A stretch of 64,000 nt of DNA from the NCBI GenBank assembly GCA_964599625.1, contig CAZRGC010000005.1:10462-74461 (forward strand), in the 5' to 3' direction. The translations under genes were made by a program, and so were the position numbers. The stretch is from an uncultured Gammaproteobacteria bacterium (GTDB taxonomy: Bacteria; Patescibacteriota; Microgenomatia; UBA8517). The notes beneath the pieces were generated by a model that had not been told where the DNA came from, did no database searches, and saw only the letters and a list, made by a program, of their open reading frames with translations. Shown here piece after piece: positions 3,771-20,368 of the stretch; within the stretch, counting starts at the first letter, position 1; each line of letters starts with the position of its first letter.

Positions 3771-4343
3771 TCAGTCTAAAGTGCCGATCGCGGCGCGAAC
3801 CCTTGGGTCTGTCAGGCTTTCTTCAAAGTATGTTTCGGCAACCTGGCGTGCAACTTCCAGATCTTTCGGACTGGCCAATCCAAGCCTTGAAAAAATCCCG
3901 TATGCCAGGCGTTTTTGGACTCCACCTTTGGGAGTCAGGAGCCATTCCAGGTATACCAAATATCCGTAGAAGGCAGGAATAAACGAATTCTCATCGTTGA
4001 CATTTTCCCCTGCTTTCTTGGCGAGAACCATTGTCTCCAAATAACGGACAAAGTATTCTGCCATGCCCTTCTTTGGAAATCTGTAACCCAAAAGCTTCAA
4101 GGAAAACTCTGTCCAAAGTTCATCTTCCTCGTAAACTTCTTTCATCGACGGAGTCCCTTGAAGCCACTGGTGAGCAAGTTTGTAGCTCTCCAGAAGTACA
4201 CGGAGCATCGGATGCGGCTTTCGGCTTTTGAGCCAATCCAAAGACTCACCCATGCGCTCCAAACCAACCTGACTCAGCTCAGCGGCAACATTAATGTTGA
4301 CAAGTTCCACAGTTTTTACTTTTTTTGATGTGCGAGAGGACAT
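3771..4343 (-). CDS. paralog family A member 1 (190 aa), unknown function
   Basis: shares motifs LLGYRFPKKGMAEYFVRYLE and C-terminal ARQVAETYFEESLTDPRVRAAIG with 4454..5206 and 5344..6105. Confidence 0.65.
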   Translation of the reverse strand: MSSRTSKKVKTVELVNINVAAELSQVGLERMGESLDWLKSRKPHPMLRVLLESYKLAHQWLQGTPSMKEVYEEDELWTEFSLKLLGYRFPKKGMAEYFVRYLETMVLAKKAGENVNDENSFIPAFYGYLVYLEWLLTPKGGVQKRLAYGIFSRLGLASPKDLEVARQVAETYFEESLTDPRVRAAIGTLD

Positions 4344-10310: not shown

Positions 10311-10849
10311 TCAACCTCCTGTTTCGAAGATGGTTTGTAAACGACCTTCTCAGCAACTTCCTTTTCCAACTCTGCGCGCGTAAAGATTACTTCGTCTTTG
10401 CCCGTGTAGGTGTAAATCGTGAAGTTAAAAACGGAAAAGGGTTCGGGTTTTTGGATGTCGTACCGGGTCGCGAAATGTCCCTCTTTATTCCCCACAATTG
10501 AAAACAGTGGATATTTTTGGGACATCCGTTTGATTGTCTCGTCATCCTTGTCGCGCGACCAACCAACTTGGAAAACTCCATGGCTATGCCACCAAAGGCG
10601 GAAAGCCGAAAGAGGAATGCCTTTGCCAACCATCTCACGCACAAAGGCGGAGTGGCCCAATGGGTCAAAAGTGGTCAGAATATCTGTTGCGGTCTGTTTA
10701 ATAAGATAAAGATTGCGCACGTAGTGCACACCTTCAACCTCCTCAATATGACCCAGCCCACTAATCTCGCCTTTGGCAATGTCGATGTAGGTAAACCACT
10801 TTTCAAAAACAGTCTCCGGCATATAGACTACCGGTAAATAATCTTCCAT
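10295..10849 (-). CDS. JAB/MPN (JAMM) metallopeptidase
   Basis: Glu in GLGHIEE plus WWHSHGVFQVGWSRDKD (HxH-x7-S-x-D); 16-nt overlap with E1 gene; SD AAGGAG. Confidence 0.7.
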   Translation of the reverse strand: MEDYLPVVYMPETVFEKWFTYIDIAKGEISGLGHIEEVEGVHYVRNLYLIKQTATDILTTFDPLGHSAFVREMVGKGIPLSAFRLWWHSHGVFQVGWSRDKDDETIKRMSQKYPLFSIVGNKEGHFATRYDIQKPEPFSVFNFTIYTYTGKDEVIFTRAELEKEVAEKVVYKPSSKQEVEWENA

Positions 10850-15459: not shown

Positions 15460-15741
15460 ACTGTCTCCTTGAATGAAAATGTTCGCTTTTATTTAAAAGC
15501 AGGCCTGTAGTACAATTACTATCTTATAATGTCAACTTGGGTGTATATCTGAAGTTAATTCCGATTATCCCAAAACCCTATCTAACGATAGTGTCTTGGC
15601 CTAAAGCTTCATATTTGGTAGAATACATGCTTGAGAGTGATCTTTCAGAAATTGTTTTTGGCCCTATTGCGTAAACAGGGGCCGAAAAAATAGATTTTTT
15701 GGACCTACGTCGCAGACGAGGGCCAGAAAGTCTGACTTTCT

Positions 15742-15814
15742 GGCCCTATCGTCTAGTGGCCTAGGACACGGGGTTTTCAGCCCTGTAACCTGGGTTCGAA
15801 TCCCAGTGGGGTCA
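15742..15814 (+). tRNA. tRNA-Glu (anticodon TTC)
   Basis: acceptor GGCCCTA/TGGGGTC (2 GU), D-arm GTCT-AGTGGCCTA-GGAC, anticodon loop TTTTCAG, T-arm CTGGG-TTCGAAT-CCCAG; no encoded CCA. Confidence 0.85.
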
Positions 15815-15831
15815 CTCAAAAAATCATTGGA

Positions 15832-15895
15832 GGGCCCATAACAACCTTGCTTCGCAAGAACGTTGTGGTGCCCGCTTGATGACTCGCGGGCCCAT
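15832..15895 (+). other. structured spacer bounded by GGGCCCAT repeats (third copy starts tRNA-Lys); internal hairpin ACAACCTTGC-ttc-GCAAGaacGTTGT
   Basis: GGGCCCATA at 15832, 15888 and 15928; possible tRNA remnant or processed spacer RNA. Confidence 0.3.
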
Positions 15896-15927
15896 AAGCA
15901 AAGCTTGTGTGCCACAGACAGTTACAT

Positions 15928-15999
15928 GGGCCCATAGCTCAATGGTAGAGCAACACCCTTTTAAGGTGATGGTTACAGGTTCGAGTCCTGTTGGGCTCA
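15928..15999 (+). tRNA. tRNA-Lys (anticodon TTT)
   Basis: acceptor GGGCCCA/TGGGCTC, D-arm GCTC-AATGGTA-GAGC, anticodon loop CTTTTAA, T-arm ACAGG-TTCGAGT-CCTGT. Confidence 0.85.
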
Positions 16000-16063
16000 C
16001 TCGCGTACGCTCCCTCTCCCACCACTCTTTGATAGTGCTTTTAAGGATAAATGTTTTGCGCAT

Positions 16064-16080
16064 GAGTCCTGTTGAACTCA
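16064..16080 (+). repeat. degenerate direct repeat of tRNA-Lys 3' end (GAGTCCTGTTGaaCTCA vs GAGTCCTGTTGggCTCA)
   Basis: 15/17 identity, about 65 nt downstream of the tRNA. Confidence 0.45.
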
Positions 16081-16150
16081 CTAGCTCTGGTTCCCATTCA
16101 ACATTTTTACCTCTATTTACTTGATAATTTATTTGTGAAAAAATCCAACT

Positions 16151-17584
16151 ATGCTTGACCGAGCAACAGATCAGGAGCACCTAATCGCAAACGAAAATAT
16201 AAAAGTTCTCGAGAGCCAAATAAGGTCAGGTGCAACCGTCGAAAACACAAACAGAAAATCTCTGCAGGATCTCGCCACAAAAAGACTTACCAATTGGAAC
16301 ACCGCAGATACCCCGGAAGAAGATAAATCTAACACCGACTATCAATATTCAGAGTTGGTAAAAATATTCGGAGACGAAAGATTGAGAGAAGTTGTAAGCG
16401 GAGCGATTGCAGACCTGGTTGCAATTCCTGAGTACCACGTTTTAACGGGTGAATACTGGGAAAGTTCCGAGTATTCACCACAAAACCTTGGCAAAAAATG
16501 GAGACCGATCGAAAAAACTACACCAGAAGAAAATTCCAAAATGGCTGGAGATTTTGCATCAAACTTTTTACCAAGTAAAAATAGTTTCAGTAACTTTTCG
16601 TACTTAGATAAAAAATATAAGTCTCTGGGTCCCGAGAACGAATGGATGGAAAAAACATATAAATACACAAAGAACATTCTTTCCGCAATGTACAATATTT
16701 GCGAGGTAGTTAAACAAGGCGACGCCAAAACAGTTGCTGCAAAAATAGCTCTGGAAAAATTACCACCAGGTCTTGTTTCAAAATCATTGAGCAGACTTTT
16801 CTTTGAGACAGACGGGATAATGAACAGAAGATACAAGTTCGCAATAGGTGATGACGAAAATGACTGGTCGGGTGACGCATCTGAACGGGGCAAGCAATAC
16901 TTCGAAGAATGGCTACTCCCCGTTTTACCCGGACTTAAAAAAATTTATGAGGAGGTAAAACAAAGTGAAGATGCCGACAAAATGATTTGTATTTTTTTAG
17001 ACAGAGATGCCAGACCGCTTATGCATGCCTTCAAATCGTATATTGGCAACGTTGATTGTGTTCCCCTTATGGCAAACAGCATGATGCTGGAAAGAAGTCG
17101 CGAACTATATAGGAATGCAAGCCTCGAAATACAAGATCAAGATATATCAAACCCGGACCTTTGGACACAAAAAATAAACGAGAGGCTAGACAAAGCAGAA
17201 TCAGATGAAATGCTAAACATGAGAGAGATTTATGGAAAACTCCTTTTAAGAAATCGACTAAAGGGTAAAACTAGAGCCCTTGTTGTTGACATTGGCCACT
17301 ACGGAACTGGAGCAAGCGCGGTTTCTTATATTCTAAGTAAATCATTTCCCGAAACAACCTTTACGCCTGTGTTAGCTTATGGGGTAGATTCAGGAGAGCA
17401 TATCAGAACTGTGGCTCCAAATTCGTCCTCCTGGGGTGCAGAACTTTCACTTCCAAAGGCTGTGCACGGATTATTCATCGAAAATGGAAAGGCTAAATAC
17501 TTAAGAAACCGTGGGAAAACAGATTTCGAAAGAGACTTTTACAAAAGTATTATTTTGGAAGTCCGAAAACTAAGAACAAAGTAG
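16151..17584 (+). CDS. large hypothetical protein (477 aa)
   Basis: long clean ORF immediately downstream of the tRNA-Lys att-like repeat; no motif recognised. Confidence 0.6.
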   Translation: MLDRATDQEHLIANENIKVLESQIRSGATVENTNRKSLQDLATKRLTNWNTADTPEEDKSNTDYQYSELVKIFGDERLREVVSGAIADLVAIPEYHVLTGEYWESSEYSPQNLGKKWRPIEKTTPEENSKMAGDFASNFLPSKNSFSNFSYLDKKYKSLGPENEWMEKTYKYTKNILSAMYNICEVVKQGDAKTVAAKIALEKLPPGLVSKSLSRLFFETDGIMNRRYKFAIGDDENDWSGDASERGKQYFEEWLLPVLPGLKKIYEEVKQSEDADKMICIFLDRDARPLMHAFKSYIGNVDCVPLMANSMMLERSRELYRNASLEIQDQDISNPDLWTQKINERLDKAESDEMLNMREIYGKLLLRNRLKGKTRALVVDIGHYGTGASAVSYILSKSFPETTFTPVLAYGVDSGEHIRTVAPNSSSWGAELSLPKAVHGLFIENGKAKYLRNRGKTDFERDFYKSIILEVRKLRTK

Positions 17585-17590
17585 AAAAAC

Positions 17591-17761
17591 TCACTGCATG
17601 AAGTAGTAAGCCAAAAGAACAAGAAGTGCAATTCCTACAACAATTACTGCCGTCTTGTCAGTTTTGGTAGCCTTTTTACTGGCAACAGCAGCACTCGACC
17701 TCACAACCTTTCTGGATTTAGCCGTCTTCCTGGGAGCAGATTTGGATTTCTTTTTAGCCAT
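17591..17761 (-). CDS. small basic protein with C-terminal TM helix (56 aa), not in ORF track
   Basis: MAKKKSKSAPRKTAKSRKVVRSSAAVASKKATKTDKTAVIVVGIALLVLLAYYFMQ; convergent with 16151..17584. Confidence 0.35.
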   Translation of the reverse strand: MAKKKSKSAPRKTAKSRKVVRSSAAVASKKATKTDKTAVIVVGIALLVLLAYYFMQ

Positions 17762-17829
17762 ATAAATAATCTATATATTAAACTTAGAATATCCTTAAAA
17801 CCTATGCAATAGGCAATTTTTGAACAGAT

Positions 17830-17860
17830 TTGCAAATATCGTTTGCACAAGGTGTATAAT
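17830..17860 (+). promoter_or_regulatory. sigma70-like promoter TTGCAA-n19-TGTATAAT giving a leaderless transcript
   Basis: ATG at 17867 lies 6 nt after the -10 element. Confidence 0.45.
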
Positions 17861-17866
17861 ACCCAC

Positions 17867-18073
17867 ATGGCAAAAGACACAGAACCCAAAGTAGGAGTGA
17901 TAACCCGCATATATGGCGAGGAAAATAGAGATCATTTGGTTGGCCGCGGCATTGGCGCGAACGGAGATGGTTTTTCTAACAGAGATTTGGAACTAGATGA
18001 AGAAATGCAAGTAATTGTTACCTTGGACGACGACTCGATCGCACGCCCCGCACCACCCGAGGAAAAAAAGTAA
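17867..18073 (+). CDS. small acidic protein (68 aa), probably leaderless
   Basis: MAKDTEPKVGVITRIYGEEN...; start chosen from promoter position (ORF track begins 17843). Confidence 0.4.
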   Translation: MAKDTEPKVGVITRIYGEENRDHLVGRGIGANGDGFSNRDLELDEEMQVIVTLDDDSIARPAPPEEKK

Positions 18074-18081
18074 AACCGGGT

Positions 18082-18306
18082 TTATTTAACTCTCCCCCCG
18101 CCAGACTCACCTTCCTGGCCCTCACGATGTTTTCTCAATATCTCAGCAACTCTGTCGGTCAAGTTTGATTCCCGTTCTCTTTGTTTTCTCCTTTTGATCA
18201 GAAGATTATTTGTCAAAGCATCCACCACTTCCCCGGTAGAGCCCTTTGTGGCTCCGCTTTCCGTCTTTTCCACCTCTGTTAGCTCTTTTTGTTTAATCGG
18301 TGACAT
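18082..18306 (-). CDS. small basic protein (74 aa)
   Basis: ORF convergent with 17867..18073. Confidence 0.35.
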   Translation of the reverse strand: MSPIKQKELTEVEKTESGATKGSTGEVVDALTNNLLIKRRKQRERESNLTDRVAEILRKHREGQEGESGGGRVK

Positions 18307-18341
18307 GGCAAAATTCTAACACAAACTACAATCTTAAGTGA

Positions 18342-19076
18342 TTATTTTGCAGGGGGTTCATCCAAAAAAACCTGAGGAAGCTGGTACAAGTCAAACGCTG
18401 TTATTCCCTGCATTTCTGCATCTTTCATCGCAATTTTCATAATCAACCTGTCAAACAATTGGTCCTTGGGAAACACTTCAGGCACAGGTCTTGATGAATC
18501 ACCTTCACCACCACTTTGAAATTTATTAAAAGTGTATATTCGGTCTTCGTTTTTGGACGGGGTAATCACCATTTTACCGATCTTCACTTTCTCCTGAAAT
18601 TGTCTATATGTTGGGTCCACAGTCCACCACTCGGATTCACTTTTGGCTTTGAATCTCAATATATAGTGAGGCATGGATTTGCTTGCAGTTTTCTCGTCCT
18701 CTCCAAGATCCATGTTGTTTGTGGAAACATGCACAACTTCAATATCAACATTATCTCCGTACTTAACTATTAGTGCCTGTTCAAGCGAAGCAACGGCAAT
18801 CGTACACATCCCGCTTCCTGTAAAATTTCCTTCAGACTTACCTACACTCATTTTGAATAATTTAGCCTCACTTTCCCCAACTACAGTCTTAGTTCTATCT
18901 TCTAGCGAAACTATTTGGGTATACCCAGAGTCCATTTTGTCAGCAATTTCCTGAAGTTTGTCCGAAAAAGGCTTTTCGTAGGACCTTATCCAATGAGCAA
19001 TCTGAGTATTTGAGGGGTTTTCGGGAGCTACCATTGCCTCGATCGGGGTATCCAATACTGGTTCTGCCATTATCAA
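18342..19076 (-). CDS. hypothetical protein (244 aa)
   Basis: ORF; GSGMCTIAVASLEQA segment of unknown significance. Confidence 0.55.
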   Translation of the reverse strand: MIMAEPVLDTPIEAMVAPENPSNTQIAHWIRSYEKPFSDKLQEIADKMDSGYTQIVSLEDRTKTVVGESEAKLFKMSVGKSEGNFTGSGMCTIAVASLEQALIVKYGDNVDIEVVHVSTNNMDLGEDEKTASKSMPHYILRFKAKSESEWWTVDPTYRQFQEKVKIGKMVITPSKNEDRIYTFNKFQSGGEGDSSRPVPEVFPKDQLFDRLIMKIAMKDAEMQGITAFDLYQLPQVFLDEPPAK

Positions 19077-19257
19077 ATTCTACACCATACTCCGTGACCA
19101 TCCCAGATAGCCGTTCTTCATGATAAAATAGCCTTGTCTTGTGGTTCTTTTGTGTGTTTCACCAAAATTCTGCAAGAATTTTGAGAGGAGAAACGATGAA
19201 GCGGTAGGGTTTAAGCGTAAGCGGTAAACCCGTCAGCGGAATCCGTTTCGACGACAT

Positions 19258-19328
19258 TGGGGGATCGTCTAATGGTAGGACAGCAGCCTTTGGAGCTGTG
19301 AATTGGGGTTCGAATCCCTGTCCCCCAG
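19258..19328 (+). tRNA. tRNA-Gln (anticodon TTG)
   Basis: acceptor TGGGGGA/TCCCCCA (U1-A72 typical of bacterial tRNA-Gln), D-arm GTCT-AATGGTA-GGAC, anticodon loop CTTTGGA, T-arm TGGGG-TTCGAAT-CCCTG. Confidence 0.85.
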
Positions 19329-19393
19329 CTCGCAGACTCGCTGTTGTTCAGTGATTCGATAGTGCGAAAAATGGAATCTAATACTTTGCACGG

Positions 19394-19410
19394 CGAATCC
19401 CTGTCCCCCA
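19394..19410 (+). repeat. 17-nt exact direct repeat of tRNA-Gln 3' end (CGAATCCCTGTCCCCCA)
   Basis: identical to 19311..19327, 66 nt downstream of tRNA; att-like scar. Confidence 0.5.
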
Positions 19411-19438
19411 ACACTTCGGCAAGCTCAGTGCAAACAAT

Positions 19439-20368
19439 TTACTTTCTATTTTTCTCTAAATAGTTTGTATACCAACTGTAATTTTTGCCAAATAATTTTG
19501 TGGTTAGCTCAATTGCCAGCTCCGCTGTTTTTCCGCCAATATCTTGGAGTGGGTTATATTCCACCACATCTATTCCAATAACATTGGATTTCTTACCGAT
19601 ATATTCACATATCGCAGCCACCTCTCTGTAAGTTAACCCTCCCATGTTGGGCATTCCGGCTCCTGGTGCGTATATGGAGTCAATAACGTCCAGATCCAAA
19701 CTAACCCAAACATTTTTGCTGGCGGTGCTCAGTTCTTCAATTTTTTTGAATAACGGCAAAAGCCCAGTCGCCAATATATCAGTAATTTTGTACATAGACA
19801 GTCCCTCCTTATCAATTAATTCAATTTCACCTGGGTCCAAGTCACACCCACCAATATGCAAAAGTTTTTCTTTTTTAAGTTTTATTGATTTACCCAAAAC
19901 CTCAACCAATCTTTTGTCCCCAAAGCCCATCAAAGAAGCCAGATGCATTCCGTGTATGTTTCCTGTTACCGTAGTTTTGTCTGTATTCATATCCCCATGT
20001 GCATCCAAATAAATAAGTCCAATATCTCCTTTTTTCGCAACCGAAGCTCCCGATATTGTTCCCAAGCTCATGGAGTGATCTCCTCCGAGTGCGATTACTT
20101 TTTTATTTTTGATTATCAAATCATGAACCACTTTTGCACTGGATTCGGACACACGAAGTATCTCTTCAAGATATTTTAGTTTAGGATTTCCGACTTTAAG
20201 TTTTTCCCTACTGACACAACTAATGTTGCCCGCATCAGATACCCTAAAGCCTGAAGCTTCAAGTTTTTCTTTTATATTTTGGTACCTTATTGCATTAGGG
20301 CCGATATCTACCCCAAGATTTTCCGCGCCAAGGTCTAATGGAATTCCCAAAATCGTTGCGTCAATCAT
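19439..20368 (-). CDS. arginase/agmatinase family ureohydrolase
   Basis: motifs GGDHS, DAHGD, SLDLDVID; adjacent to spermidine synthase. Confidence 0.8.
   Translation of the reverse strand: MIDATILGIPLDLGAENLGVDIGPNAIRYQNIKEKLEASGFRVSDAGNISCVSREKLKVGNPKLKYLEEILRVSESSAKVVHDLIIKNKKVIALGGDHSMSLGTISGASVAKKGDIGLIYLDAHGDMNTDKTTVTGNIHGMHLASLMGFGDKRLVEVLGKSIKLKKEKLLHIGGCDLDPGEIELIDKEGLSMYKITDILATGLLPLFKKIEELSTASKNVWVSLDLDVIDSIYAPGAGMPNMGGLTYREVAAICEYIGKKSNVIGIDVVEYNPLQDIGGKTAELAIELTTKLFGKNYSWYTNYLEKNRK

Follow-up and report, generated by a model that had tools for sequence, protein, structure and literature searches.

The exact 17-nt repeat of the tRNA-Gln 3′ end described here was most likely left by a past insertion of DNA into the tRNA gene, and the sequence between the two copies appears, by sequence comparison, to be a defined family of 64-nt spacers rather than random debris. 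We give about an even chance to the more specific reading that the interval is an insertion module without cargo, placed at a hotspot of tRNA recombination in this Patescibacteria (CPR) genome. In the window (the whole 64,000-nt stretch of DNA that was analyzed), the locus consists of the following elements.

19258..19329, plus strand: tRNA-Gln(UUG) gene (ARAGORN; Rfam RF00005, 58.7 bits; the end lies at 19329 or 19328)
19311..19327, plus strand: repeat copy 1, from C56 of the T-loop to A72 of the acceptor of tRNA-Gln
19330..19339, plus strand: 10-nt linker TCGCAGACTC, from the end of tRNA-Gln to the inverted copy (alignment of four spacers)
19340..19359, plus strand: imperfect inverted copy (15/20) of the tRNA-Gln 3′ end (repeat search; shuffle P of ∼0.03)
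19362..19391, plus strand: inner hairpin GUGCGAA...UUUGCAC, at the tip of the module (minimum-free-energy fold, z = −2.76; alifold; pair counts)
19394..19410, plus strand: repeat copy 2, probably the displaced original 3′ end of tRNA-Gln

The original prediction of an exact repeat was borne out: the 17-mer CGAATCCCTGTCCCCCA has exactly two matches in the 64-kb window (19311 to 19327 and 19394 to 19410) and still only two when up to three mismatches are allowed. The copies are 83 nt apart from start to start, with 66 nt between them. Chance, which had been judged unlikely, can be ruled out as the origin, with two matches found in 0 of 100 dinucleotide shuffles. The duplication also has the anatomy of an integration, again as predicted, since it runs from the T-loop to the 3′ end of the tRNA, in direct orientation and downstream of the gene, and kindred blocks exist at other loci (described below). 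The block of identity stops at A72, the next base being G73 in tRNA-Gln and A after copy 2 (G-CTC at tRNA-Gln versus A-CAC at copy 2). The CCA end of tRNA-Gln is not encoded in the window, where CTCGC comes next. No ORF is found in the 66-nt interval. The genes near tRNA-Gln encode an arginase, a spermidine synthase, an NAPRTase, a NUDIX protein, and a Rieske protein, and the closest named homologues of the arginase are from Daviesbacteria, Levybacteria, and Saccharimonadales, an affinity that assigns the window to Patescibacteria.

On the 5′ side of tRNA-Gln, at 19164 to 19186, we observed a near-palindrome, AAAATTCTGCAAGAATTTT, followed by GAGA, a possible operator or promoter of tRNA units. 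The same motif is present in the alternative tRNA-Glu/tRNA-Lys spacer of strains L001 and L002 (L001, ∼10442 to 10632), and in relative L184 its counterpart reads AAAATTTC...GAAATTTT, with compensatory changes in the arms. Separately, none of the three tRNA genes in the window (15742 to 16000 and 19258 to 19329) encodes CCA, and the tRNA-Gln of relative L127 does (CCCCCAGCCA).

The roughly 65 nt enclosed by the repeat had been read as a scar or minimal remnant of a lost element, and this reading was not supported. In global alignments, four spacers (those after tRNA-Gln in the window, L184, and L165 and the one after tRNA-Lys in the window) were more alike than shuffled sequences, including the tRNA-Lys spacer against the tRNA-Gln spacers (P = 0.000 to 0.002). 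The 64-nt length is identical in three diverged tRNA-Gln lineages, and the spacer is ∼70% identical across lineages whose tRNA-Gln genes differ at ∼9 positions and whose flanks are unrelated. This constancy of length and sequence between diverged lineages is not expected of a neutral remnant, which is further opposed by the tRNA-Lys paralogue, the inverted copy of the tRNA end, and the hairpin. A spacer profile searched with nhmmer against ∼1.4 Mb of fetched DNA plus the window matched only after the tRNA-Gln and tRNA-Lys genes of this lineage. At the level of individual blocks, the linker after tRNA-Gln starts with TCGC, as does the tRNA-Lys trailer, and the sequence GATAGTGC occurs three times in the window, two of these being ∼30 nt after tRNA-Lys and tRNA-Gln. 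An Rfam search of the window matched the tRNA family alone, with none for the module. A transposon or MITE with a target-site duplication was not supported, as no convincing terminal inverted repeats were seen in the module when judged by eye and spacer copies in the DNA searched occur only after tRNA-Gln and tRNA-Lys of this lineage.

The inverted copy at 19340 to 19359 could pair either with the tRNA end itself (19310 to 19329) or with downstream copy 2. The hairpin at the tip covaries, being closed by GUGC/GCAC in the window and L184, by GCGC/GCGC in L165, and by GUGC/GCGC after tRNA-Lys. In L165, moreover, a G57A change in the T-loop of tRNA-Gln (TTCGAAT to TTCAAAT) is echoed in both other copies: relative to the window, ATTCGA becomes ATTTGA in the inverted copy, and CGAATCC becomes CAAATCC in the direct copy. 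Mirroring of this kind is not predicted by the plain vertical decay of a scar. An inverted partner scored better than shuffles in about 6 of the 16 cases tested (P = 0.03 in the window, 0.014 in L165, 0.000 in L075 and L122, 0.016 in L082, and 0.01 in the proteobacterial locus L074). Extending the inverted-copy pattern to the 5′-side modules of L184 and L186 was not justified (P = 0.28 and 0.07). A fold of the full-length tRNA plus trailer, in which GCUGUUGU pairs with the anticodon stem, was dropped, as the pairing is not kept in L165.

A similar pattern had also been claimed for tRNA-Lys, and it is real, though imperfect: the repeat there has 19/22 identity and a spacing of 81 nt. The elements at this second locus are as follows.

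15928..16000, plus strand: tRNA-Lys(UUU), which bears the paralogous module (ARAGORN; Rfam)
16001..16063, plus strand: tRNA-Lys spacer, homologous to the tRNA-Gln spacers (shuffle P of 0.000 to 0.002; nhmmer E = 1e-9)
16064..16085, plus strand: degenerate copy (19/22) of the tRNA-Lys 3′ end (repeat search)

The repeated unit here is the 22-nt 3′ end GAGTCCTGTTGGGCTCACTCGC at 15983 to 16004, compared with 16064 to 16085. The spacer carries GATAGTGC at the same offset as in the tRNA-Gln spacer and also contains TTTGCGC. Among relatives, the tRNA-Lys module is present in the window, L001, and L002 and absent in L186, L184, and L165; the tRNA-Lys of L186 is identical to that of the window, yet no degenerate 3′ copy follows it. 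Relative to L186, the window has an extra segment at 16002 to 17584, which comprises the tRNA-Lys module and a 477-aa ORF. A search of the window for another tRNA-Lys or tRNA-Gln copy that might delimit a larger island found none.

Several further observations were made around these tRNA genes. The 477-aa ORF (16151 to 17584) directly follows the tRNA-Lys module and has no Pfam match; L186 and L184 lack it in their syntenic region, and it has the look of an islet on the 3′ side of tRNA-Lys. The spacer between tRNA-Glu and tRNA-Lys (15816 to 15927) is replaced wholesale among close relatives, with 112 nt in the window, 193 unrelated nt in L001 and L002, 51 nt in L184, and 439 nt including a GIY-YIG ORF in L186. 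The window version contains two additional copies of the tRNA-Lys 5′ end, GGGCCCATAA. The tRNA-Glu leader (15655 to 15747) has two upstream copies of the tRNA 5′ end together with the preceding T-run (15655 to 15667 and 15696 to 15708, spaced by 41 nt), and 14 nt at 15719 to 15732 are perfectly complementary to the leader plus tRNA 5′ end at 15734 to 15747. The resulting hairpin is kept in L186 with compensatory changes (GGGCCAAAAAATC/GATTTTTTGGCCC), and the whole ∼85-nt leader module is missing from L184. A palindrome, GAAAGTCTGACTTTC, is common to the tRNA-Glu leader of the window (15722 to 15744) and to positions 741 to 757 of L165, on the 5′ side of a GIY-YIG ORF.

The predicted contrast between occupied and empty sites was seen among relatives of the window: the tRNA-Gln site is occupied in the window, in L184/L125, and in L165 and appears empty in L127. 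The module is present in all five near-identical strains (L001 to L005, 96 to 100%). Selection was not argued from strain identity, since the whole block from 16000 to 19800 is near-identical in L001 and L002 and the identity of the module is therefore uninformative. The contig ends at 19253 in L003 to L005 were likewise discarded as a sign of rearrangement, because the tRNA 5′ 24-mer is common across phyla and k-mer graphs branch there.

L184 and L125 are two contigs of GCA_964600575.1, with an arginase 84% identical to that of the window, and they overlap by 55 nt across the module. Together they give the order tRNA-Gln, homologous 64-nt spacer, 19-nt copy, contig break, RibD_C gene, degenerate second copy (GGTTCAAATAGCGTCTATGTCCCCCAGC), 151-aa gene, and arginase. 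L184 has an additional 55-nt insertion upstream, which duplicates the first 20 nt of tRNA-Gln and is absent in the window and L186. In the more distant metagenome contig L165, the tRNA-Gln differs in the anticodon stem and T-loop and both flanks are unrelated to the window, and the module is present with the same 83-nt spacing as in the window. L165 was the one useful result of a metagenome scan with TCCCTGTCCCCCAGCTCGC, in which the other 32 of 33 matches fell in coding sequences or at ordinary tRNA-Gln loci and lacked the module. Arginase synteny was given up as a guide to further relatives, as it is lost at ≤76% identity.

In L127, whose arginase is 91% identical to that of the window, ATTGGGGTTCGAATCCCTGTCCCCCAGCCA is followed by TAA and then the arginase stop. 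The tRNA-Gln 3′ part, which includes the 5′ strand of the T-stem, lies 6 nt from the arginase stop and has an encoded CCA, with neither module nor second copy. L127 appears to be an empty site, of which the last ∼30 nt of the tRNA are visible, as the contig starts inside the gene. The sequence following copy 2 in the window shares no homology with that following the L127 tRNA, which prevents the reconstruction of one clean insertion event. The 3′ flank is CTC at the tRNAs and CA(A/C) at the displaced copies, and this difference weakly suggests that the downstream copy is the original tRNA end, which once bore CCA.

To place the locus in a wider context, we collected 119 genome loci sharing the tRNA-Gln 5′ 24-mer and ran a directional scan over 157 tRNAs from the fetched loci, the strain contigs, and the window, searching for a 15-mer of each tRNA's own end (≤2 mismatches) within 300 nt. 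The tRNA's own 3′ end recurred downstream in 21 of the 157, several of which represent one locus in near-identical strains; recurrence of the tRNA's own 5′ end upstream was seen in 7. Reverse-complement controls over the same 157 tRNAs gave 0 matches, and wrong-side combinations were seen only at a genuine tandem tRNA-Gly pair. Identity blocks begin in the T-loop in the window, L064, L075, L122, and L095; at the tRNA-Val of L075, the 43 nt between the anticodon loop and CCA, inclusive, recur without a mismatch 27 nt downstream. Across loci, the breakpoints fall in the D-, anticodon-, and T-loops, and every identity block ends at the tRNA 3′ end. Grouped by record titles, ∼5 of 34 Patescibacteria tRNA-Gln loci had a short-range 3′ copy versus ∼4 of 80 others.

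Some of these loci have cargo or additional signals beside the copies. In L009, a Taylorbacteria MAG, the order is tRNA-Gln, terminator, 5.1 kb of cargo, a short inverted piece, an arm of ∼95 nt, and the copy. The cargo has no integrase, one of its ORFs matches a periplasmic binding protein, and the arm shares homology with those of L064 and L075, two loci without cargo. In L064, L075, L122, and L074, the analogous hairpin is separated from the tRNA by an intrinsic terminator. Among further arrangements on either side of tRNA-Gln, L085 (125 to 522) and L010 (1879 to 2272) have a 5′ fragment of tRNA-Gln interrupted by a GC-rich hairpin (CCCGCC...GGCGGG) and followed by a small GIY-YIG ORF and the intact tRNA-Gln, with 20 nt of leader included in the duplication in L010. 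In L051 and L095, tRNA-Gln is flanked by similar hairpin-interrupted fragments. L095 (∼4010 to 4200) also has GTCCCGAGGAG...GAGCGACGAGGGGCTACG twice, on either side of the displaced tRNA-Gln 3′ copy, and a motif resembling it lies downstream of tRNA-Gln in L010.

Integrases were sought by tblastn with XerD and Hin sequences. In the 64-kb window, no tyrosine or serine recombinase was detected (E > 0.06). The same queries detected integrases directly beside partial tRNA-Gln attP sites in viral contigs. The 17-mer CGAATCCCTGTCCCCCA itself adjoins tyrosine integrase genes in viral contigs, at attP sites of proteobacterial-type phages. The suggested search for the 17-mer next to an integrase was thus positive for these viral contigs, and no integrase or related mobile element was found in the window or in the viral collection that would match the module. 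No recombinase was found in the Patescibacteria loci with short-range repeats. When the viral collection was scanned with the 17-mer and the module, the matches were tRNA-Gln genes of phages, attP sites of phages of the proteobacterial type, or due to chance; for a free element or attP with the module, there were chance matches only. One viral contig with a bare 17-mer (L133) has no integrase nearby and looks unrelated.

On the insertion reading, recombination inside the T-loop of the tRNA-Gln gene would have produced the insertion, probably through a site-specific recombinase. The incoming DNA would have brought its own tRNA nucleotides 56 to 73, which would now complete the gene (19311 to 19327 plus G73, followed by a module-derived CTCGC), and the original tRNA-Gln 3′ end would have been displaced 83 nt downstream, to 19394 to 19410. 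The interval may then be seen as a cargo-free 64-nt cassette in which a linker is followed by an imperfect inverted version of the tRNA end and by a small hairpin; together with the displaced copy, this cassette could fold into a stem-loop, and the tRNA-Lys of the window would carry a member of the same cassette family. In relatives, the displaced copy would serve as a boundary for small gene islets. Because no recombinase is encoded here, the module would now be immobile or reliant on an enzyme supplied in trans. The predicted junction of an empty site is GGTTCGAATCCCTGTCCCCCA joined to ACACTTCGG, and that of a circle or attP is TTTGCACGG-CGAATCCCTGTCCCCCA-GCTCGCAG.

The order of target copy, optional cargo, inverted partner, loop, and target copy would fit a P-arm with an inverted core; by analogy, it would also fit an attachment site that folds into a hairpin, like those of CTX or attC, with the hairpin as part of the recombination site. 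A bolder version, which we regard as decidedly unlikely, is that the inverted copy, hairpin, and displaced tRNA end form an active recombination site, which would fold as single-stranded DNA or a cruciform that imitates the double-stranded tRNA 3′ end. Host recombinases would then capture and shuffle small cassettes beside Patescibacteria tRNA genes without an element integrase, in an integron- or CTX-like manner, and the module of the window would be an empty docking cassette.

The main rival to the insertion reading is that the module forms an RNA structure under selection in the 3′ trailer of tRNA-Gln, one that imitates the 3′ strand of the tRNA. Either the downstream mimic would serve as a decoy for the inverted segment and leave the tRNA free to fold, or the stem-loop would aid the processing or stability of the CCA-less precursor. 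There is no terminator between tRNA-Gln and the module, and the plus strand of the module gives a more stable fold than both shuffled sequences (z = −2.8 and −3.1) and the minus strand (z = −0.8 and −2.3). The length and sequence blocks kept in three lineages and the T-loop change that covaries three ways in L165 also speak for an RNA, as does the analogous tRNA-Glu leader hairpin, which sequesters the tRNA 5′ end and has compensatory changes in L186. Pairing across the four sequences is kept in 88% of cells, versus 22 to 46% in slid controls, and there are three compensatory pairs, with several G-U pairs that would be C-A on the opposite strand; however, with only four sequences this covariation is not significant, as 57 to 71 of 500 shuffles reach the observed values. 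The tRNA-Lys version, unlike that of tRNA-Gln, folds differently (z = +0.45), a terminator precedes the analogous hairpin at the four loci named above, and an Rfam match is absent. Furthermore, the close relative L127 lacks the module, as do three relatives at the tRNA-Lys site, which indicates that it is dispensable. On balance, we consider a selected trailer RNA unlikely.

An origin without a recombinase seems quite unlikely. Here, a break in the tRNA gene, for instance one made by a nuclease directed at tRNA genes, would have been repaired by copying another template and end joining, or template switching would have occurred, leaving a direct-inverted-direct layout. Small GIY-YIG nuclease ORFs do lie inside the tRNA clusters of relatives (twice in L165 and in L186) and beside tRNA-Gln in L007, L010, L041, and L085, in L085 and L010 between the hairpin-interrupted 5′ fragment and the intact tRNA, and the location of breakpoints in the D-, anticodon-, and T-loops is compatible with such breaks. 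Yet the window has no GIY-YIG ORF, at no locus does one lie between a tRNA and its 3′ copy, and a spacer family common to two different tRNAs points to a defined donor sequence instead of ad hoc repair. A decayed tandem duplicate, of which the 3′ end alone would survive, could account for the period of 81 to 83 nt as one tRNA plus a short spacer (∼11 nt for the 83-nt period), and the tRNA-Lys spacer does contain CTTTTAAGG, which equals the tRNA-Lys anticodon loop, while GATAGTGC resembles GGTAGAGC. We rejected this very improbable origin, as the similarity of the spacers to tRNA positions 1 to 55 is at the level of shuffles (P = 0.96 to 0.99 for tRNA-Gln and 0.08 for tRNA-Lys) and the spacers match each other instead. 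No weak tRNA match appeared at E ≤ 10, and the 3′ pieces upstream or 5′ pieces downstream that tandem duplication would leave were not seen.

Partial tRNA copies are standard landmarks in the mapping of mobile DNA, and in this case the landmark is present without mobile genes and the interval is conserved. If the modules are recombination sites or cassette remnants, they would represent a route of gene gain and loss beside tRNA genes in the very small genomes of Patescibacteria and would account for the assembly breaks at these sites. As RNA structures, they would instead represent a new type of tRNA trailer, one that mimics the end of its own tRNA. On either reading, software that annotates tRNAs or finds islands should allow for nested fragments of tRNAs in these genomes. 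We found no description of such modules in Patescibacteria in the literature.

A regenerated target together with a displaced fragment is the mark of integration into tRNA genes in the Islander account (PMC4383910), and the anatomy of such integrations is also treated elsewhere (PMC9897764). As in the tyrosine-integrase islands of the Islander/TIGER type, the direct repeat here runs from a loop to the tRNA 3′ end, with the intact gene upstream and the fragment downstream, and relatives show occupied and empty sites as well as degenerate copies bounding small islets. Unlike in those islands, the copies are just 66 nt apart, genes for an integrase or other element functions are absent, and no free element was found, and the spacer is conserved, structured, and present at two different tRNAs.

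Other known systems share individual traits with the module. The CIMEs of Streptococcus retain attL and attR after the loss of their recombination genes, and the tycheposons of Prochlorococcus include cargo-only satellites in tRNA-linked arrays. Both resemble the present case in having att copies without an integrase and small cargo accreting beside a tRNA gene; the known examples are kilobases long, however, whereas the module here is 83 bp and empty. Folded single strands serve as recombination sites in the attP(+) hairpin of CTX phage, which is used by XerCD, and in integron attC. Their layout after insertion is like that seen here (target copy, cargo in some cases, inverted partner, a loop of ∼35 to 95 nt, and target copy, with a stem that imitates the target), and they need no element-encoded integrase; the layout of L009, L064, and L075 fits this pattern. 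The target here, in contrast, is a tRNA 3′ end and not dif or attI, and a single-stranded intermediate would be hypothetical. Downstream of E. coli tyrT, 178-bp repeats each contain the last 19 nt of tRNA-Tyr, so that, as here, a tRNA 3′ end is directly repeated downstream in the same transcription unit; the tyrT units differ in being longer, in tandem, and coding for a small protein, and they are not known to contain an inverted copy. Overall, the duplication is of a known kind, that of a tRNA att site, and what is unusual about it is the conserved minimal module that it encloses.
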